Origin: Octopus vulgaris
Taxonomy: Eukaryota
Assembly: GCA_951406725.2 (NCBI GenBank)
Contig: OX597825.1
Coordinates: forward strand, 41,354,001 to 41,418,000
DNA: 64,000 nucleotides
Direction: 5' to 3'
Program-made: the position numbers and the translations under genes
Notes under the pieces: model-generated
What the model saw: the letters and a program-made list of their open reading frames with translations, nothing else
Databases searched by the model: none
Told to the model about the DNA's origin: nothing
Shown here: positions 17,297 through 58,129 of the stretch, one piece after another
How positions within the stretch are numbered: the first letter of the stretch is position 1
Layout: each line of letters begins with the position of its first letter

Positions 17297-17339
17297 TATT
17301 TAGATATCATTTAATGATTGCTTTCTATGCTGGCATGGT

Positions 17340-18268
17340 TTGGATAGAACAGGACGTCCAGTTGAGTTTGATGATAAGCTCCTTGAGGCATTACTTGAAG
17401 AAAATCCTGCATTATCAGTTGAAGAATTGGCAATAAAGCTAAATTCAAACAATACAACTGCTCATCGTCATCTTCAACAACTTGGAAAGGTTCCTAAACT
17501 TGGAAAATGTGTGCCTCATGAATTGTCCGAAAGCAACTGCAAATACCGAGTTGACATCTGCTCGTCCCTCCATTCTCGTGAACTTATTTCACCATTTTTG
17601 GATAGACTTGTGACTGGTGATGAAAAATAGATCTTCTATCGAAATGTTAAATGACGTAAACAGTGGCTTGGTAAAAGGGAAAAAGCTCAACAAAAACCAA
17701 GAAGGAAACTTCATGGGAGAAAGGTTCTTCTTTCTATCTGGTGGGATTGCAAAGGAGTAATTCACTTTGAATTGTTACCACCTAATGCAGCAATCAATGC
17801 TCAAGTCTACTATCAGCAATTAGAGCGTTTGAACCAAGCTTTGAAGAAAAAAAGACCCGCTTTAGTGAATCAAAAAGGAGTGATGTTTCATCAGGACAAT
17901 GCGCAACCCCACACTGCAAAGATCACATTACAGAAGATTGAAGAGCTTGGTTGGGAAAAAATTCCTCATCCACCTTATTCTCCTAACCTTGCATCTTCAG
18001 ACTACCATTTGTTTCATAGTTTACAGAATCATTTGGGGGACATAACTTTTGCAAACCAGGAGGAGGTCGAAACTGACATTTCAGAGTTCTTCACTTTGAA
18101 ACCAAAAGAGTTTTACACTGGTGGGATTAAAAAACTTGTAAATAGATGGAAGGAAGTCATAGATAATCAGGGAAAGTACACTGATTATTAAATTTCAATT
18201 AAATATAACATTTGATCACTTGTTTTCTTTATTCAAAATTCAGACAGAACTTATGGGATGACCTAATA
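17340..18268 (+). pseudogene. 5'-truncated mariner (DD34D) transposase with putative right TIR
   Basis: GRP, VPHEL, VTGDEK*, HQDNA and HPPYSPNLASSDYHLF motifs, with stops. Ends in gaacttatgggatgacctaata. Confidence 0.92.
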
Positions 18269-19676: not shown

Positions 19677-20091
19677 TATATATATATATAATCCATAGAT
19701 GAGATCCAGAGATTTTCCATATAGAAGACACTTAGTAGTGCTCAAATGATTCAGTCTTAGATTCTGATGTCTTTACAGGGGATCAGTTCCACAAGGTAAA
19801 GAAAGGCTACAAGAGGGATCACGTTGAGCAGGTATAGAAGCAATTATGCAGATAAACAAATTAGATACATTAAATATAATAAATATATTAAACATATTAA
19901 ATATAATAGTTTGGGTATTAAATACAAAGTATGTATTTATGTATGCAAGTAAAATGAGAAAAAGCAAAATGTAGAGACATTCAGATGTTGAATTTTTAAG
20001 TATAAATGTATATTCATATTAATAGGTCCAACTTACTCAAAGTATATAAAAGACAAAAAAAATTAAAGGGGTGGAAGAATGGTGTTATAAT

Positions 20092-20212
20092 TCCAACAGC
20101 TGTTTCTGTGGGCTTGGAGATCCATAATAACGTTGTTAGATGTAGTTAGTCACAATATGTGGCCATACAAATGCAAATAACATTCGCTAAGACAAGCCAG
20201 CTTCATCAGGGT
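20092..20212 (-). ncRNA. Type I hammerhead ribozyme motif with a long stem II insertion
   Basis: Minus strand reads ccCTGATGA agctggcttg...caagcccaca GAAA CAGCTG TT gg. Stem III is the palindrome CAGCTG; the base of stem II is mismatched. Confidence 0.65.
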
Positions 20213-20643
20213 AGAGAAGATCTTAATGCAGAGAAGTTCAAAGATTACCTATTCTCTTGGATTATTTACATGTTTTTTGAAAAGTTCAGCCTCAACACTC
20301 TGATGTTTTCTATTCACTCTATTCACGTTTTTATAAGGGCTTATTTTTATTCTTAATAATTTCTACATTGCTGTTCTAACCTTATTTCACTTATCTATTT
20401 ATAAATGCATATTAGATTTTTATATATTTGTGTATTTATGAATTTTTTATGTTTTAATATTTTAAAGACTGATATACATTGATCTATGGCAGAATATATA
20501 TTTAAATTGTTGAACCTATCTGAAGTTCTCCTTAACATTTTTTATACCTTTGTGTCTCAGGTCTTTTATCTGAGCACTTCTGGTTACTGCCTATAACAAT
20601 AAACAAAGAAACTTTACTATAAGTATGACTTTACTTGTTAGTA

Positions 20644-21490
20644 TATGTGGTCTGATCAATAAATATCCGGACTGTTGCTATAGTAATGAAGCTGAAGCAC
20701 AAGAGTGAAGCTGTTTTGTTCAGATTGACCTTGAACACTGCTGTTTACAGCAGTGCTTGGTAGGAAGGTGTGTAGTGTGTAATCATCACATTGACCATGA
20801 CAGAGAATTTGAGCAGAGAATCTACATCAAATTTTGACAAAAGCTTGATGATATTTGCTCAGGGACCTACACAAAGTTTTCAACAAGTTTTTCTCATTCT
20901 CAACACAATCAAGGAGATATTGTGCAGCTGAAATCTGAGTGTCTTTTTGGTCAGCTGAAAGCAGTTTTAGCACAAACTTGGCAGACACCCATTTCATACC
21001 CAAATCTTCAGTGAGAATGGACTGAACTGAACTGTAACTAATCTGCACTTCATTTGATAACTCATTTGATGATTTCCCCTGACAACTGCACGCACATCTA
21101 TGATGTTTTTTTCAGTTCTGCTGGTTGCAGAGTGTTCATCAATATCGACATTTTGCTGCTGTCTTGGAAATGTCTGAACCACTTGTACATTTATACACTC
21201 ATGTGCAGCCCATACACTCCTCTCCATATGCTTTCTGCAACTTTGTGCAGGCCTCTGAGCAGGTATCATCATGACAGCTTTCTCCTGTCATGGTCAATGC
21301 AACAGTTGCATGCTACACACCTTCCTTCCAAGCACTGCTGTAAACAGTGGAAATGAGCTTGAATGTTAAAACTTAGTGTGCATGCATAGCAGAGTTCAAG
21401 GTTAATCTGTGTCAAGTGGCTTCACTCTGCATGCTTTAGCTTCGTTACTATAGCAACAGTTTGTATACTAATTGATCAAACCTCTTCGTG
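20644..21490 (-). mobile_element. Non-autonomous mariner derivative with long inverted termini
   Basis: 20644-20880 is the reverse complement of ~21240-21490 (tgatcaat...ctgttgctatagtaa.gaagct). Internal minus-strand ILTEDLGMKWVSAKFV. Confidence 0.85.
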
Positions 21491-22095
21491 ACTACTCTGA
21501 TTTCTTCTTCAGATTTTACAAGCTATTTTGCTTATCTATGTATATATGTGCTGATATTCACATACAAACACACACACACACACACACACACATATATGAT
21601 GATTACTTCATCTTGAGAGATGATAGCCATCCCATCAACACACACACCATCATGCAGCACAGTCACCCTATTGATGAGCCCTTAGATGACTTTTAAGTCC
21701 AGCTGCTCACTGGTAAGGTTTAAAACACAAATGACAGATATTATTCATGTTTCTTCTATATCTTTACTCTTGGAATCTGATTCTGAAGGAATGTTTTTGT
21801 GAACATATGTCTTTTAAGTCCTGATATTGTCTTACGACACAAGTTGTAAGAGGTGGTTGGTGTCCCGGATCATTACCTATCTGGTCATTTCAGTTTTCCT
21901 GTGACTTCATATGGTTCATGTATATATATGTATTCGCCACATCAAAGTGATTGTTCCATGTTACTGCTAGTTTAACCCCAGGCAGATCTTCTGCCAGCTG
22001 AGTATCAGTGTGATACTGGACCCTTTATATACAAAATATACTGCTAACAGGGGGAGCGAACTCCTACCATCTTGTAGCAGACAACAGGATTGCAA

Positions 22096-22133
22096 GACTG
22101 ACTTATTTTGAGCTGATTGGCTCATCCTCAGTC
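22096..22133 (-). ncRNA. Minimal hammerhead-like motif (degenerate)
   Basis: gaCTGAGGA tgagc caatca gctc AAAA taa GTC agtc. GAAA is replaced by AAAA. Confidence 0.5.
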
Positions 22134-22171
22134 ACAGACCCTGGCTATGTCTCTGGTGACGAGGTGCATGC

Positions 22172-22210
22172 AACTGATGATGGACCAAACAGCTTGAAAC
22201 TGAGTCAGTC
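22172..22210 (+). ncRNA. Minimal hammerhead-like motif
   Basis: CTGATGA tggaccaaacagctt GAAA C tga GTC agtc. Core nucleotides are intact but stems I and II are poor. Confidence 0.55.
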
Positions 22211-22615
22211 TCATGATCCTGTTGTCTGCTAGAGGTTGGGTGGTAGTTCACTCCCCCTGTTAGCAATATATATTGTATATAACGGGTGCAGCATTACACT
22301 GATAACTAGCTGGTGGAAGATCTGCCAGGGGTTAAAATAGAAGTAACATGGAACCGCCACTTTGATGTGGTGATTGATTTTACTTATCTCTCTCTCTCTC
22401 TCTCTCACTCCAGATATATATATATACATATATATATAACTACATATACATATACATGCCTAATTGCATGGTAAGAAGCTTGCTTCCCAACCACATTGCT
22501 CTTCTTTTAATGCTGCCATGTGGCACCTTGGACAAGTGTCTTCAACTATAGCCGTGGACCAACCAAAGCCTTGTAAGTGAATTTGGTAGACAGAAACTGA
22601 AAGAAACCATCACAC

Positions 22616-22650
<35 letters not shown>

Positions 22651-22661
22651 CATGTGTATGT

Positions 22662-23329
22662 AATTATTAGATAATAAAACAAATGGTTTATACCTGGAAG
22701 CTTTTGCAGTTGTCATTATGTATATGGTAAATGAAAGACGGAAGATGGAAGATACGAGAATTTTTATTAATCACAACAATAGTTTGGAGACGTCTAGCAT
22801 CGGCCCCTCATGGGTGGAATATTGAACAGCTGGTTCAGGAGCATCCGACAGTGCAGATGTGTCTCTTTGGGTGATAAGAATTTTATAACTGGTTAAAATA
22901 AGTTCTACAATGTATCTTCTCATTTCATGTAAAGAAAAGCAACAAAATTAAGATATATCTTCATTTATATAGAAAATCAAAAATAAAATAACAGATGCAA
23001 AAAAAGAAACAAAATCACAAGTCTTTCCTTGCTGTATTGCAAGTTCGTTTCTTTTTGGCATCTGTTATTTAATTATTGATTTTCTATATTAATGAAGCTA
23101 TATTCTTTAATTTACTGCTTTTCTTTACACGAATTAGAAGATACATTGCAAAACTGTTATTTTAACCAGGTACATTTACTTATCACCTGAAGAGACACAT
23201 CTGCACTGTCAGAAGCTCCTGAACCAGCTGTTAAGCATCCCACCCATGATGGGTCAATGCTAGATATATCCAAACAATTGTCATGATAAATAAAAAGTCT
23301 TGTGTCTTCCATCTTCCGTCTTTCACTTA

Positions 23330-23335
<6 letters not shown>
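22662..23335. mobile_element. Palindromic insert (arms ~22724-23012 and ~23045-23335, plus a ~60-nt left extension)
   Basis: tatatggtaaatgaaagacggaagatggaaga... is matched by ...tcttccatcttccgtctttcacttaccatata, colinear through to the centre. Confidence 0.9.
23181..23288 (+). ncRNA. Hammerhead-like motif with a long stem II (G12 replaced by C)
   Basis: tatcac CTGAAGA gacacatct...agatatatc CAAA CAATTG TC atgata. Stem III is the palindrome CAATTG. A mirror copy lies on the minus strand at ~22770-22877. Confidence 0.55.
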
Positions 23336-23374
<39 letters not shown>

Positions 23375-23709
23375 CATATATATATTTCTATATATGTATG
23401 TGCGTTTGTGTCTGTGTTTGTCCCCCCACCGTCGCTTGACAACAGATGTTGGGGTGTTTACATCCCTGTAACTGAGCGATTCATCAAAAGAGACTGATAA
23501 AATAAGTACTCGGTTTACAAAGAATAAGGCCTAAGGTCAATTTCTTTGGCTAAAACCCTTTAAGGCAGTGCTCCGATATGGCCACAGTCAAATGACTGAA
23601 ACCAGTAAAACAATAAATATACATACATGTGTGTGCACGCGCACTTGCGTGCGTCTTTGGGTGTGTGTGTGCTTGTGTGTACATGCAGAGAAAGAGAGAA
23701 AAGGAGGAA

Positions 23710-24343
23710 GATTGACTGATCAAGGGACTTAACTCATGCCCACTTAATAAACACTTCTATTCATTATTCTGTTATCCCATAGGAAAATTGTGTAATGGAA
23801 ATTAAGAGCTATAAACGCAACACTTTTGTGGTTGGTGACTTAATGTTCTTCGTTCCTTAATTAAAATCATCCATATGGCGTTCATCTCTATTGCAAGCTC
23901 ACTGATGAGGTTATCAAAGCCCAACATATGTGATCATTCTTTCAGTCATCTTATCTTCCAGTGTTGTTCCAAATCCATTATCCTAACTTTGTTCCACAAA
24001 GATTATTGAATTCCCTTTTCCCTTCACAAATGATCAGCCATGCTGATTTTTCTGTCTCAACCTGGTTTAGTCAATTGAAAGAATCAACACATATGAAAGG
24101 CTTTGATAACCTCCTCTGAAGACCTAGTGTAAAGATGAATTCCATTTGGAATCATTAAGAAAGAAGGTACATTAAACCTACAACAATAAAAAAAGATGAT
24201 AGGTTTAAAGCTCCTAATTTCCATTACTGAATTGTCCAACAAATAAGACAATGGAATAGTAAATGCAGCATTGATTAATTGTCAAATGTTGAGTATTGTT
24301 GTTTATTTAGTGGATGTGAGTTCATTTCCTTGCTTACTCAATC
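23710..24343. mobile_element. Diverged palindromic insert (arms ~23710-23950 and ~24070-24343)
   Basis: gaggttatcaaagcc pairs with ggctttgataacctc, and gtaatggaaattaagagct with agctcctaatttccattac. CTGATGAG at 23902. Confidence 0.75.
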
Positions 24344-24723
24344 CGAACATAATTCTTCAAACTGAATGTGCAAGTGGTATCAGAAGCACAATAATATATA
24401 TGGTGTAGGCAATGAAAGGAAAACAATATCCTCACTATGGGTTTAAATAAAAGGCTCAGTTTGGAATTTAAAAGGATGGAGTGTGTGTGTGTGTATGTGT
24501 ATATATGTTGTGTGTGAGTGTGTTTATATGAGTGTGTGTGTAAATTAAAAAGGGTGGCTTATTAGCAATTACAACCTAAAGGCAAAGTTAAAAAGCAGTC
24601 ACAAAAGTGACAGAGGGTAGTGACGAGCACTGTGTTTGCTAAAAATAAAAGTTAAAACAACTCAAATGCCACAAAAGCACTGTCTTAATGACTATCAAAG
24701 GGAGGAAAGTACCCGGCATATAT

Positions 24724-24779
24724 AGTCGGATCGCAATTTCAGATTTTGATGTCGACCATCTTAATCCACATCAGCGACT
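24724..24779 (-). ncRNA. Type I hammerhead ribozyme (A9 replaced by T)
   Basis: agtcg CTGATGT ggat-taagatggtcgacatcaaa-atct GAAA TTGCGA TC cgact. Stem I is a perfect 5 bp. Confidence 0.75.
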
Positions 24780-25020
24780 CCTAATGCCTAGGGTTAGACT
24801 CAAGTTTTTTTAACTCTTATTTTTAGTAAAAGCAGTACTATTCAGTACCTTTGTCACTTTTGTGACTTCTGTTAATTTTGCCTTTTGGTTCTAATTGCTA
24901 ATAAACCACCCTTTTAAAAATATTGTTTACACTTTAACTGCTTTGAAAATCAACAAATGCTTTCAACGGTTTTTCTTATGAGACTGACAGAGGTAGTTGA
25001 GTTTAACCCTATGCATCAAG

Positions 25021-25075
25021 AGATACTGATGAGGATTAAGATGGTCTACATCAAGATCCAAAGTCGTGATCTGAT
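25021..25075 (+). ncRNA. Type I hammerhead ribozyme, second copy (GAAA decayed)
   Basis: CTGATGA ggat-taagatggtctacatcaag-atcc AAAG TCGTGA TC tgatc. Confidence 0.65.
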
Positions 25076-26471
25076 CATATGCGCTGGGGAATTACCTCCT
25101 TCTGTCAGTCATTAAGACAGTACTTTGTGGCTTTTGAGTTTTAACTTTTATTTTTAGCAAAAGTGGTGCTAGTTAGTACCTTCTGTCACTTTTGTGACCT
25201 CTCTCTCTCTCTCAACATATATATGTATATATATATACACACACACAAACATACTAACTCATATTTAAACATACATGCATTCATTTATAAATATATGTTC
25301 ACATCCAAAATATATATGGCTATGATATACAAAGATGATAAAAATCAATTTTGAACATACAGGCACACTCATAAAATTGCTCATGCACACAAAACATAGA
25401 TTCACACACATATACAAAAACACAGAAATAATCCTACATATATTTATATATATGCGTAAGTAGCAACTATGCACATCAAGATATATGCATACACATATAA
25501 TGTTCCTTATTAGTGTTTTGAACACTAGGAAATAGTGTAATAAATTGGCTATAGTCATTATTTAAATTGACTGGTGTGGAAGAAACATCTACTTTCCAGG
25601 GGAGGAATTCAAATTAAGATTAGTCTTTTGAATATATAGAATTCAGTACACTACACTACAGCAGGAAATCCTAAATAGGTTGGCATAATGCCAGATAATT
25701 TCATTAAAAGAAAATGATAATTCTTTGAGGAAATAGTTTTTCATTACATTAGGAAATTCTTCATTGCAGAAATAAAGAAAAACTATAGAGAACCTAAGAA
25801 GTAATGATACAGAGAAATAGAAAGGGAGAAAAGAGCAAGAGAAAAGAAAAGAAGACAAGAGAGAAAGAAAAAAGAAGGGAGTGAAAGGGAATTTGATGTT
25901 ATATTATTATGGTAGTACTTCAGCTGAAATCACAACTTAGCAAATCACTTGGTCACTATTGCCAGTCACTTTACCACGTATAAGTCCATATTAATTTTGT
26001 TGATGGTCTGTATTGTAGAATTTTGTTAAGCTTTCATTGACTGAGAGGTTAAAATTGACATTATAGATGCTAGTCATTAATATAACACAGATCAATATTC
26101 TGCTTCTTATCATCTTCTTCTGAGTGAGACTTTGAATCATTTGGTGGATACACAAAATTTATATGTAGAATATATGAGCAAATATGAAACAGTTATGAAT
26201 AAGAATATCAGTTTTATTGCTTGCTTCTTCTATTATCATTCTATTCACATTCGGGATGCATAATGGTCCTGTGACTTCCTTTTGTTGAATAATTCTGAGT
26301 TTGAAGAAAACATATTTTCAGTATATTAATGAATGTTCAAGTTCAGTATAGTTGTGAACTAACCAAGAATACCAGATTACATATGAAATATAAACTTCTA
26401 ACAATATTAAAACAAAATCACACAAGTACATTCAGTACAGAAATAACATATAACATGAAATAACCTATATA

Positions 26472-30646: not shown

Positions 30647-30810
30647 ATAATAATAATAAGAAGAAGAAGAAGAAGAAGAAAAAGAAGAAGAAGAAGAAGA
30701 AGAAGAAGAAAAAGAAGAAAAAGAAGAAGAAGAAGAAGAAGAAGAAGAAGAAGGAGAAGAAGAAGAAGAAGAAGAAGAAGAAGAAGAAGAAGGATAAGAT
30801 GAAGAAGAAT
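30647..30810. repeat. (AAT)n followed by a (GAA)n microsatellite
   Basis: Directly visible. Source of the poly-K, poly-F and poly-S ORFs. Confidence 0.95.
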
Positions 30811-31102
30811 CTGTGCTTGGAATGTAAAAACATTTTAATCTATTACTATGCACGTTTCCACCTATCACATGTTTCTTATGATCATTGTCTGTATTCCTGG
30901 GATGATCACATTACTGTCCATAATATCACGGGACATGTATGGATATATTACAGACAGTACTTTAATCATCCCAGGAATACAGATGATGATGATCATAAGA
31001 AACATGTGATTTATGGCAAATGCACATAGGGATGCATTAAAATATTTATAAATTTCATCCATGGATTATTATCATTATTGTCTGTTTTACTACATGTACA
31101 TT

Positions 31103-41580: not shown

Positions 41581-42175
41581 TTAGGCCTTAAATGATAAGG
41601 CTGGAAAGATTTTCCAATTCTTCAAAATATATTTATACATATGCATGCAACCACTGAAAATTTCTGACCTGGAGTTCAATAGAGAGATAGAGATCTTAGA
41701 TCTGAAGAGGATCTGCAATCTTTCAGTGCAACAAAGTCTACATTTATTCAATCCATTCACATAAGGTATGAATTTCTCAATTACTTTCCGTTTACTCACA
41801 TGCGGTGTTTCATTATCTTTCAAACTCCATACATGACTTGCCAACTTAGTAGCTTTACTTTCGTCCCTATGTCGGAAGTGATTGGCATAGCAATTTTTAA
41901 ATTCACCTTGACATAATCCAATATAGGTCTCCTCCTCAGTTATACTATTATTTAGGATTGCAGCAAAGGATCCTGACCGTCGTTGGTCAAGTGGACAGGA
42001 TCCTGGGTTGCAACAGTTGTAACTGGATTCAGGTTCTTGGTATTGACCCCATGTAATGATATTCTTCATACTGGGGTAGCAGCTACAAGATAGTTTCACA
42101 GAATGCCTATTAAATATTTTCCTCTGGGAAGTGTTTGACTAAGAGTGACAGGAATCTTTTACCAATGTTAGTTTT
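41581..42175 (-). pseudogene. Penelope-like element GIY-YIG endonuclease C-terminal fragment
   Basis: KLSCSCYPSMKNII, NC..PGSCPL, YIGLCQGEFK..YANH, TKLASHVW, CRLCCTE and LLNSRSEIFSGCMH. Confidence 0.85.
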
Positions 42176-54613: not shown

Positions 54614-54856
54614 GAAGGTTTGGAGATGATGTACAGGTATTATATATTAGAAAAATTGAGGTAATCAGATCAGATGGTTCATATTTGTAGATATTTATTT
54701 ATATATTACATTTTTTACATATATATCATATCATTCGGATTAGCGCTTGCTCCCATTCTAGTGGGTTTTCAAATCAAATCAGTTGTGGGTAGTTTGAACC
54801 TTTTTATAGTTTCGTAGTAGTGGGTGAGGAGGAAGTGAGACAGAGAGAAAATATGT

Positions 54857-54938
<82 letters not shown>

Positions 54939-55152
54939 ATTTATATCTGAGAGTGAAGAAGTGTTATTTCCGTTGGTCTGCTGGACCCCCTGTGGTTTTA
55001 TAAGAACTTTGGCTGTCCATTTCAATGTCACTGAGTGTGTGTTGTGCATAGGTTGGCCTGGCAAATGTCATTTGGGGTCACACTTTCTATGATCATTCTG
55101 TGGAGGTGTGTGTGTGTGTGTGTGTGTCTCTGTGTGTCTGTGTGTGTTTTTT

Positions 55153-55208
<56 letters not shown>

Positions 55209-55840
55209 GAGAAGGGGAGAGAGACAAAAAGAGAAAAGGGAAAATAAAAATAATAATAATAAAAATAAAAAATTAAAAAATTAAAAAAATAAAATAAAAT
55301 AAAAACAAAAAATAAAAAATAAAATAAAAAAATATAAAGAATAAATAAAAATATAAAGAATAAAAAATAAAAAAATAAAAATAAAAATAAAAATAAAAAT
55401 AAGGGAGGAAGTGGAGAAGAAAAAATATTTTTGTGTGTTGATATTTATACCAACACATATATATACACACACACAGACTTATACATAAAATATTTGAAAA
55501 AACCTTTTTATCGGTTCAAAATGAACAACCAAATTATACCATCTTGAAAGTTGTATGTCATAGGAAAGTTAAAATTAAAGTGACAATTAAAGGGTAAAGA
55601 TGGAAGTGAATTATAAAGATAATAATATAATATGATACACACACACACACCTCCACAGAATGATCATAGAAAGTGTGACCCCAAATGACATTTGCCAGGC
55701 CAACCTATGCACAACACACACTCAGTGACATTGAAATGGACAGCCAAAGTTCTTATAAAACCACAGGGGGTCCAGCAGACCAACGGAAATAACACTTCTT
55801 CACTCTCAGATATAAATGCGCACACACACACACACACACA

Positions 55841-55909
<69 letters not shown>

Positions 55910-56115
55910 CACACATATTTTTCTCTCTGTCTCACTTCCTCCTCACCCACTACTACGAAACTATAAAAAGGTTCAAACTACCCACAACTGATTTGATTTG
56001 AAAACCCACTAGAATGGGAGCAAGCGCTAATCCGAATGATATGATATATATGTAAAAAATGTAATATATAAATAAATATCTACAAATATGAACCATCTGA
56101 TCTGATTACCTCAAT

Positions 56116-56129
<14 letters not shown>
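54611..56129. mobile_element. Young long inverted-repeat insert (arms ~54641-55119 and ~55637-56129, ~520-bp spacer)
   Basis: Arms are essentially identical apart from the (TG)n tract and its margins. (TA)n on both flanks and a ~30-nt left extension. Confidence 0.93.
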
Positions 56130-56147
<18 letters not shown>

Positions 56148-56727
56148 CATAAGTTACATCTATAGGGTGGTGAATATTATTCGTTATAAATATCACCACC
56201 AGTGGCCTAGCATGTATAAATAGTCAATAGACAACATATTCATATTTTAAAATAGAAAATTACTTTTTAACAGGTAATTTTTACATGCTAGAAATAGCAG
56301 CCAACACGGCCAAAACCACAATTTAATAGCACATTTCAAAGTAAACGAAAAATTAAAAAATTTACCTCGTTATTTAACGGTTATACCATGGTTTTGAATT
56401 TCTCCAGCAAACAATATTATTCGCCATCCTTTAATAGGTAATATAGCAAAACAATATTATCCACCAGGCGAATTCTCATCAGTAACCGGCCTCAACAACT
56501 AACTTATAATTCAGAGACAAGATAACACGTGTCCCATCATTATATGTTATAATTTTTCAAAATACTGCCTGTGTTGTCTACTATTTGTAGCATGTAAAAT
56601 TACCTGTTAAAGGGTAATTTTCTATTTTAAAATATGAATATGTTGTCTATTGACTATTTATACATGCTAGGCCACTGGTGGTGATATTTATAACGAATAT
56701 TCGCCACCCTATAGATGTAACTTATGA
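56148..56727. repeat. Inverted repeat (~160-bp arms, 56148-56308 and 56568-56727) enclosing a hammerhead
   Basis: cataagttacatctatagggtgg... is matched by ...ccaccctatagatgtaacttatg with few mismatches. Confidence 0.9.
56378..56488 (-). ncRNA. Type I hammerhead with a long stem II (G12 replaced by A)
   Basis: cggtta CTGATGA gaatt...aattc AAAA CCATGG TA taaccg. Perfect 6-bp stem I, palindromic stem III, GUA site. Confidence 0.78.
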
Positions 56728-56765
56728 ATATGTTCTTAGCATTCTCGAAGATTCAGCTCGGCATT

Positions 56766-57780
56766 TTATTTATTGCTGATTGTATATGCGCCTGCACGCA
56801 GTATTTCCTTTAATTTGGGGTCCTTATGAAGTATTGGTAAATTCTGGGTGATGATGGTGAAGGCTTCTTTGTTTCTGGGGTTGCATGTGGATATGTAAGG
56901 CAGTATTTTTGGAGAAGGTGTGTTGTTGTGTTGAACTTTTCTCAAAGTTTCTATGTCTATTTCTGTTGCACGTCTGATCCCATCCTCTATGAGTTGAACT
57001 AGGTAGTGTCTGTCAATTAGGGTGTTTTTGAGTTCTTGTAGTCTAAAGTTCCTGGTATTTTGTTCTGACACTATTGTGCATATCCTTCTTGCAAGGTTGA
57101 AAGGGATGTTTGTTTTAGTGTGTCTTGGGTGGCATGAATCAAAAAGTAGGTATTGTTTGGTGTCTGTGGCTTTGTAAAATATGTCTGTTTCTATTTTTAG
57201 GTTAATTTTCTTAATCAGTATATCTAAGAATGGAAGCTCCTTTTGGTTGTACACCATTGTGAACTGTATATTTGGGTTTATGCTGTTCAATAGGTTTTTG
57301 AATTTTAGGAGTTTGTGTTTTCATTCCAGAGTATAAAACAGTCGTCCAAGAATCTTTTCCAATTCTCTTTTATGTATTGAGAAAGGGGTTTCCAAAGGTC
57401 GATAAAGATTCCTGGTATATAACTATTTCCAGGTAGCCCATTGTTAGGTTCGCAATGACTGGTGCTGCCCTTGTACCCATAGCAATTCCGGATTTTTGAC
57501 GGTAAAACGTATTGTCAAACACGAAGTGATTATTTTGTAGGATGAATTCAACCGATTTAGTAATGAATTTTTTACTGATTCTTTTTGGTATTTCTTCCGG
57601 AAATTGGTCCAGCCAGAACTGTATTGCCTCTAGTCCATAATTATGAGGTATACTGGTATATAAATTAACTACATCAAATGAAACCATGATTGTTTCTTCC
57701 TTGACTTTTTTGGGAAGGTGGTTTAACATATCCAAGTCATCTCTGATATGACTATCGATGTGTTTGAGGAAGGGTTTCAG
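56766..57780 (-). pseudogene. Penelope-like element reverse transcriptase (frameshifted, truncated before the endonuclease)
   Basis: SFDVVNLYTSIP, QKSGIAMGT, WKRFLDDCF (frame between the two ORFs), LPFLDI and FYKATDTKQYLLFDSCHP. Confidence 0.95.
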
Positions 57781-58129
57781 AGAGAGAGAGATAAATAGGT
57801 AGGTACTTAGATATGCATACATGTGCACATACATATCAACTTTTGGGCATCATGTATATACACTTTAAATGAGTACATGACACTACCAAACCTACAGAAA
57901 GCTTAAATATGTCTGTCATTCTCATGAGTCACGATGGTGACAATCTTCATCTCACTCTGATATATACTGTATTTTTGGCACAACAAATCTCTCAAGACAT
58001 TTTATCTCAGACAATTCCACAGATTCATGCCTTCTCATAGTGTATATGCATTTAGCAGGAAACACAAACAGTGATTTTAATTTCATGTTGTTTTAGATAC
58101 ACTAAATTTTTACCTGCACACACACATAT

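Follow-up and report, generated by a model that had tools for sequence, protein, structure and literature searches.

Penelope-Like Elements, Retrozymes and the Octopus Locus

Inverted 5'-truncated copies, a tail of 30–40 bp that is often present at one end only, and targeting to (TA)n are described for Penelope-like elements (PLEs) in passages of PMC8557442. The PLE protein PAc, a predicted dimer, cuts and extends both strands, and its two internal reverse transcriptase (RT) start sites bound the tail; these sites do not differ between the strands (PMC11167929). A palindromic helix III, a bulged base 5' of helix II and a 2-bp helix I are described for PLE hammerheads in sections of PMC4209133, together with hammerhead pairs on opposite strands 100–700 bp apart. 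Part of Li et al. 2026 (10.64898/2026.07.22.740005) treats retrozymes as non-autonomous PLE derivatives originating from the pseudo-long terminal repeats (pLTRs) of PLEs, and takes two or more consecutive intact hammerheads as the criterion of an 'active' retrozyme. Repeats of ~350–390 bp in mussel retrozymes and low GC content (<45%) as a descriptive trait of non-LTR retrozymes are given in part of PMC7229834. The present analysis concerns a cluster of inserts, several of them palindromic, located in 64,000 nucleotides of Octopus vulgaris DNA (assembly GCA_951406725.2, contig OX597825.1, positions 41,354,001–41,418,000 of the forward strand). This whole stretch is referred to as the window, and all coordinates given without a contig are positions within it.

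The inserts were labelled A to E from left to right, and insert A was later split into A1 and A2. In the genome searches the best 40 candidates were scored of 912 (B), 1976 (C), 701 (E), 50 (D), 2453 (A) and 115 (A2), and 20–30 loci per search were taken for consensus building.

Probable Origin of the Palindromic Insertions

The cluster very probably represents six decayed families: four from the 3' ends of coding PLEs (A1, A2, C and D) and two (B and E) made of units without an open reading frame (ORF) and with a predicted hammerhead; the palindromes among them would have been formed by PLE RT/GIY-YIG enzymes priming on both strands. These elements are a known kind of genomic parasite, old and inactive, and not a new class. 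The link to PLEs, the targeting of microsatellites and the origin in hammerhead-bearing families, all proposed in an initial annotation of the locus, are thereby upheld.

In the proposed scheme, the enzyme would cut both strands of a (TA)n tract, and each 3'-OH would prime reverse transcription on element RNA, a downstream start giving the tailed arm and an upstream start the untailed one. Both cDNAs would end early and then be end-joined. The RNAs of B and E, multimeric or circular, could use the enzyme in trans. Near-neutral decay would have followed, and two or more waves of insertion into a patch rich in microsatellites would have built up the cluster. Two-strand priming, early stop and end joining are inferred from the end data presented below, taken with the precedents in PMC11167929 and in passages of PMC8557442.

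Self-alignment recovers four of the five inverted-repeat inserts of the initial annotation, with inverted-alignment scores far above those of shuffled sequences: B (21934–22373, 78%; 304 vs. a shuffled maximum of 50), C (22717–23340, 82%; 468 vs. 63), D (23782–24237, 59%; 147 vs. 48) and E (24545–25198, 67%; 241 vs. 77). The fifth, insert A (19.7–20.6k), shows no self-inversion (69 vs. 77) and consists of A1 on the minus strand joined to A2 on the plus strand. The sequence that the six families have in common is limited to simple repeats, in agreement with the earlier statement that the inserts have no obvious sequence in common outside the core.

Head-to-head palindromes account for 14 of 42 non-redundant B loci (1 tail-to-tail, 27 one-strand) and 22 of 44 E loci (none tail-to-tail, 22 one-strand), and the E locus L081 is actually a 23rd palindrome. 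The 3' ends of both families cluster at two sites ~55 nt apart. A microsatellite lies within 30 nt of 32/55 B and 53/66 E 3' ends, compared with 7/27 and 10/22 5' ends, respectively. Where the ends of E palindromes are classifiable, a long (tailed) end is paired with a short (untailed) one in 17/17 cases (p 8e-6), and this pairing is found in 5/7 B palindromes. The untailed arm extends further 5' than the tailed arm in 12/17 E and 4/5 B cases, and hence cannot have been folded back from the tailed cDNA. This comparison of 5' reach replaced a modular containment test, which is uninformative for arms over one unit. Common variants per site amount to 0.021 for arms within a locus vs. 0.010 between loci in B, and 0.016 vs. 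0.008 in E; this doubled sharing between the arms of one locus fits a common source or local conversion. A tail hairpin whose feet coincide with the start sites was rejected as a general feature: the B tail folds (z −3.1), the C tail does so weakly (−1.1) and the E tail does not (+1.1).

It is quite unlikely that the palindromes were formed later than the insertion, or by one cDNA folding back and being copied, instead of by two RNA-templated primings. The roughly twofold variant sharing of same-locus arms speaks for such an origin, as does the short arm lying inside the reach of the long arm in 5/17 E cases. However, the two arms have distinct, defined end points and each frequently carries sequence missing from its partner, both outer ends are found at microsatellites, and a palindrome composed of two families exists (locus L023, see below). 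The initial annotation had proposed a distinct class of ORF-less fold-back elements moving as palindromes, and this is very improbable. Four real palindromes do occur in 5.5 kb, half of the E loci are palindromic, and B and E are indeed ORF-less, but the B and E junctions are all distinct (36/36, 14 from B and 22 from E), with no recurrent identical junction seen; therefore, the palindrome is made at insertion and is not the mobile unit. A1, A2, C and D belong to the 3' ends of PLEs with coding capacity, which refutes this view for these four families; the annotation itself had named such an outcome as evidence against a distinct class. Outside the window, palindromic loci number 8/29 for A1, 5/15 for A2, 1/28 for C and 0/28 for D, and the families are thus neither all ORF-less nor usually palindromic.

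B and E could instead be parts of coding PLEs, either pLTRs or tandem ends, with the copies that bear the ORF having escaped sampling. Sampling can hide an ORF, since A1 appeared ORF-less in 30 loci until a query with its 5' edge produced long extensions, and partial tandems are known in PLEs from passages of PMC8557442. Against this, every extending B or E locus has its own unit 3' end upstream (circular permutation), whole units served as queries, and an upstream endonuclease relic is absent in the loci examined, which makes this origin unlikely.

Several observations weigh against two-strand priming on PLE and retrozyme-type RNAs as set out above. The first B query was palindromic, and the B loci that were new from a single-arm query include 4 head-to-head, 1 tail-to-tail and 16 one-strand cases. 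The B palindrome of the window has two short ends, and in E2, a relative of E described below, 2–3 long/short palindromes stand beside 2 short/short ones (by eye). The end classes were set after the histogram had been seen, and an unclassifiable end is present in 5/22 E and 7/14 B palindromes. The three-way fold is not the minimum-energy structure of the isolated consensus hammerheads. No autonomous partner for B or E was identified, and no sequence match connects them with A1, A2, C or D.

Families B and E

The B palindrome of the window consists of a left arm (21934..22133, minus strand; monomer positions 151–351, with a decayed hammerhead) and a right arm (22137..22385, plus strand; monomer positions 116–363, with CTGATGA at 22174). 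The left arm of E (24542..24803, minus strand; monomer positions 116–376) has its tailed, long 3' end at (GT)n. The right arm of E (24803..25202, plus strand; positions 257–661, 1.2 units; CTGATGA at 25026) has its untailed, short 3' end at (CT)n.

The unit length is 362 nt in B and 336 nt in E, and both are circularly permuted, i.e., each unit has its own 3' end upstream. Pieces longer than one unit are found at 19/42 B and 34/44 E loci (one of the E cases, L081, is a mis-merged palindrome), the longest being ~2 units. The predicted cleavage site is crossed by 51/65 B and 54/73 E segments. Pieces of this kind imply that the template was either an uncut multimer or a circle, between which the data do not distinguish. 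The predicted folds of the circles are strongly self-pairing (z −8.2 for B and −4.7 for E).

The longest stop-free stretch comprises 98 amino acids in B and 43 in E, so the description of these two inserts as non-coding stands; it fails for D, whose arms encode the C-terminus of an endonuclease. A1, A2 and C are likewise of coding origin. No endonuclease relic was found upstream of B or E in the loci examined (best 40 per search), and four matches lie downstream or far off. The GC content is 38% in E and 47% in B. By their unit, predicted hammerhead and absence of an ORF, B and E fit non-LTR retrozymes.

Copies of these families average 87% identity to the consensus. The hammerhead core is scarcely more conserved than the remainder (0.92 vs. 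0.88 in B, 0.91 vs. 0.88 in E). Near-consensus queries gave no young B or E copy, nothing closer than 84–88% being present among the best 40 candidates, and both families look extinct as judged from these copies. Contigs of sequencing runs aligned to E come largely from other members of the family and are uninformative as to expression.

Families A1, A2, C and D

From their sequences, these four families are the 3' ends of protein-coding Penelope-type retrotransposons. The left arm of C (22660..23020, minus strand) is the 3' end of a Hydra-type PLE with an optional 3' tail at ~22660–22725, which carries an internal deletion; the right arm (23023..23331, plus strand) is untailed and adjoins (TA)n. 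The optional tail, present on the left but not on the right arm in the window, is found in 4/29 anchored C copies. The C copies L030, L047 and L057 have ~1 kb of upstream sequence in common, which encodes a GIY-YIG-like domain with the CxCx5C, CxxC and CxH motifs intact (by eye). The Atlas clusters nearest to this domain score 0.95–0.97, and in those with an assigned family PF01541 (GIY-YIG) is present in 27% of members. Pfam and one protein search gave no match for the endonuclease relics.

A1 (19690..20245, minus strand) is the 5'-truncated 3' end of a Hydra-type PLE, and its 3' end adjoins (TA)n. A2 (20241..20621, plus strand) is the 5'-truncated 3' end of a second Hydra-type family. The two are joined head-to-head, overlapping by the 5-nt word AAGAT. 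The A1 copies L355, L363 and L364 have up to 1.2 kb of upstream sequence in common, with an endonuclease relic in L364. The endonuclease domain of family C matches A1 at L364 (tblastn, E 1e-7) and A2 at L154 (tblastn, E 1.5e-10); one cysteine of the motifs is decayed in each (by eye). A1 had been considered as a non-autonomous family with a fixed 5' end, which is ruled out by the extensions and the endonuclease relic recovered with the 5'-edge query.

(TA)n is found at the 3' flanks of A1, A2 and C copies, and their endonuclease domains, inspected by eye, lack CCHH. These three families match the 3' ends of Hydra-clade PLEs; their placement in the clade is based on the endonuclease motifs read by eye, because they are represented by 5'-truncated relics from which the RT was not recovered.

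The left arm of D (23744..24069, minus strand) comprises the C-terminus of a CCHH-type GIY-YIG endonuclease and its 3' flank, and the right arm (24076..24264, plus strand) contains the same coding sequence head-to-head to the left one. The CCHH-type C-terminus was recognized by eye in translations of the consensus and of copies. The CTGATGA at 23902 (plus strand), which the initial annotation read as half of a hammerhead core, is present, but it is a chance match antisense to the endonuclease codons; an inward-pointing insert with half a hammerhead is thus ruled out. The 420-nt D consensus has no match to the hammerhead descriptor on either strand, and its 3' repeat is poorly resolved.

The window contains further relics of PLE enzymes, as stated in the initial annotation. 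A PLE-like RT relic at 56766–57849 (RVT_1, E 5e-5, under the Pfam cut-off) adjoins an inverted repeat at 56143–56731 (92%). A Hydra-type endonuclease relic at 41581–42138 (minus strand) is 31% like the domain of family C (E 2e-7).

Hammerhead Motifs

Hammerhead cores had been described for four of the inserts. In the window no copy passes the type I hammerhead descriptor (0 matches for the strict version), and the Rfam matches at E<=1 are limited to miRNAs and driven by microsatellites, with no hammerhead among them. The claim holds at the level of the families: in B, C, E and A2 (the latter represented by 6 long copies) the consensus satisfies the descriptor in the sense orientation only, compared with 0 of 200 shuffles each. 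The A1 and D consensuses fail it. In the window A1, the hammerhead-like motif consists of CTGATGA at 20209 and GAAA-CAGCTG-TT at 20106–20095, and the consensus has a stem I of only 2 bp. The A2 hammerhead is located upstream of, and is absent from, the window copy.

The core is kept between the families and the stems vary. The predicted E hammerhead is canonical, in that of B stem I is palindromic and the core is followed by one additional base, and that of C passes only with the core CCGAAGA and has a 77-nt stem II region. Palindromic stems III, as noticed earlier, are confirmed in the consensuses of A1 (CAGCTG), C (CAATTG) and E (TCGCGA). The beginning of the C core in 29 copies reads CTG in 11, CCG in 6, CCA in 3, TCG in 2 and otherwise in 7; this spread looks like CpG decay from an ancestral CCGAAGA. 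All 11 core bases are kept in 25/50 B and 24/59 E copies, and the full descriptor is passed by 2/65 B and 7/73 E segments.

Of 73 candidates scored in a genome search with Hammerhead_1, 8 exceeded the cut-off. The 30 hammerhead sites fetched all lie outside the window families, several of them inside palindromes. These sites (L169–L198, RF00163) belong to other hammerhead families, many of which end with AATAAA; several have the core CCGAAGA.

Mixed-Family Junctions

E2 (L319–L348) is a 341-nt circularly permuted unit ~70% like E, with the core CCGATGA, a palindromic stem III and 1197 candidates. At locus L023 (G000:C19:68106261-68109495), positions 1215–1772, the short end of an E2 arm and the long end of a B arm belong to one head-to-head palindrome with a 1-nt overlap at the junction. 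Each arm is 87% identical to its consensus, and the long/short rule is followed across the two families. Outside the window, 328 loci yielded 63 head-to-head junctions, of which L023 is the one mixed case; this is a lower bound, since only families of the library are detectable. No further case was seen among the matches listed for 134 one-strand loci. The A1/A2 join of the window represents a second mixed case, picked out after the fact.

Two other candidates were rejected, L081 as a same-family palindrome and L330 as a same-strand neighbour. The latter (1502–2130) contains about one unit of B, a TA-rich spacer of 9 nt and an E2 piece on the same strand, one of which was likely inserted at the end of the other.

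Both mixed junctions could have arisen by deletion between neighbouring insertions. It is tentatively suggested, as a possibility somewhat short of even, that a single Penelope insertion event can use an asymmetric dimer charged with two different RNAs, one active site starting at the tailed site and the other at the untailed site, the A1/A2 join and L023 being its products. In that case the end rule would be a property of the enzyme dimer and not of a single RNA circle, and unrelated RNAs would be joined head-to-head in microsatellites by PLEs. Neither strict end pairing nor mixed junctions are described in the literature searched, which was mainly open-access and did not extend to older PLE reviews and supplements. 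Relatives of these families may already be listed in the Hydra and hammerhead supplements of PMC8557442.

The cluster is of value as fossil evidence for the formation of inverted PLE insertions, a process called undefined in a passage of PMC8557442. The tailed/untailed pairing and the mixed junctions give predictions for the existing in vitro assay of PAc.

Density of the Cluster and Other Features of the Window

Sixty stretches of 10 kb chosen in advance contain 34 long palindromes in 600 kb, which extrapolates to ~160,000 in the 2.8 Gb of the genome. A microsatellite is present at one or both outer ends of 22 of the 34, compared with 12% of background windows, and three palindromes within 5.5 kb were found in one of the 60 stretches. 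The locus has 4 palindromes vs. 0.31 expected per 5.5 kb (~10-fold over background, Poisson P 3e-4). At this probability, ~156 comparable clusters of four in 5.5 kb are expected by chance in 2.8 Gb. As an assembly of dead copies of known kinds of element, in a genome this rich in long palindromes, the locus is ordinary.

Consensus matches in the 600-kb sample amount to one each for A1, C and D and none for A2, B and E. D is about 80% identical to its consensus and the remaining families are mostly 85–90% identical to theirs. The enrichment of the patch is explained by insertions that accumulated in at least two waves in DNA rich in microsatellites.

A tail-only B piece of ~68 nt (20626..21533, plus strand; parts 20626–20646 and 21488–21533) adds one more insertion event at the cluster. 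It is split by the later relic of a terminal inverted repeat (TIR) DNA transposon (20647..21487, strand not assigned; TIRs at 20649–20742 and 21388–21482), which is outside the PLE system. Its transposase-like peptide at 20827–21111 (minus strand) is presumably mariner-like. A nearly intact transposase over two reading frames at 17304–18191 (plus strand), inspected by eye, is likewise presumably mariner-like. Additional inverted repeats of the window are located at 361–677 (92%), 30805–31070 (74%) and 54641–56129 (97%).

Comparison with Known Systems

In L1 twin priming, two primers from one double-strand cut lead to an inversion. In contrast, the arms described here have hundreds of bases in common, begin at two fixed sites on the RNA, and can be joined from two families.

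Metazoan non-LTR retrozymes resemble B and E in units of ~340–360 nt, a type I hammerhead (predicted from the consensus in B and E), the absence of an ORF, partial tandems and circles predicted to be self-pairing. Unlike them, B and E are dispersed and old, comprise at most ~2 units and often form head-to-head palindromes with PLE-type ends. B also differs in its GC content of 47%, palindromic stem I and extra base after the core.

Hydra-clade PLEs, as described in passages of PMC8557442, share with A1, A2 and C the C-terminal GIY-YIG domain with CxCx5C, CxxC and CxH and the insertion into (TA)n. These motifs are intact in C and partly decayed in A1 and A2. A predicted hammerhead in the 3' repeat is present in A2 and, with the core CCGAAGA, in C, and the inverted truncated copy with a one-sided tail is found in C. 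The difference is that A1, A2 and C are represented only by 5'-truncated relics and that the ancestral core of C looks like CCGAAGA.

D is closest to canonical PLEs with a CCHH-type C-terminal endonuclease (EN+; Penelope/Poseidon), for which PAc provides the precedent of cutting and extension of both strands from two RT start sites (PMC11167929). In contrast to these elements, D is without a hammerhead in the part examined, and it is older, at about 80% identity to its consensus.

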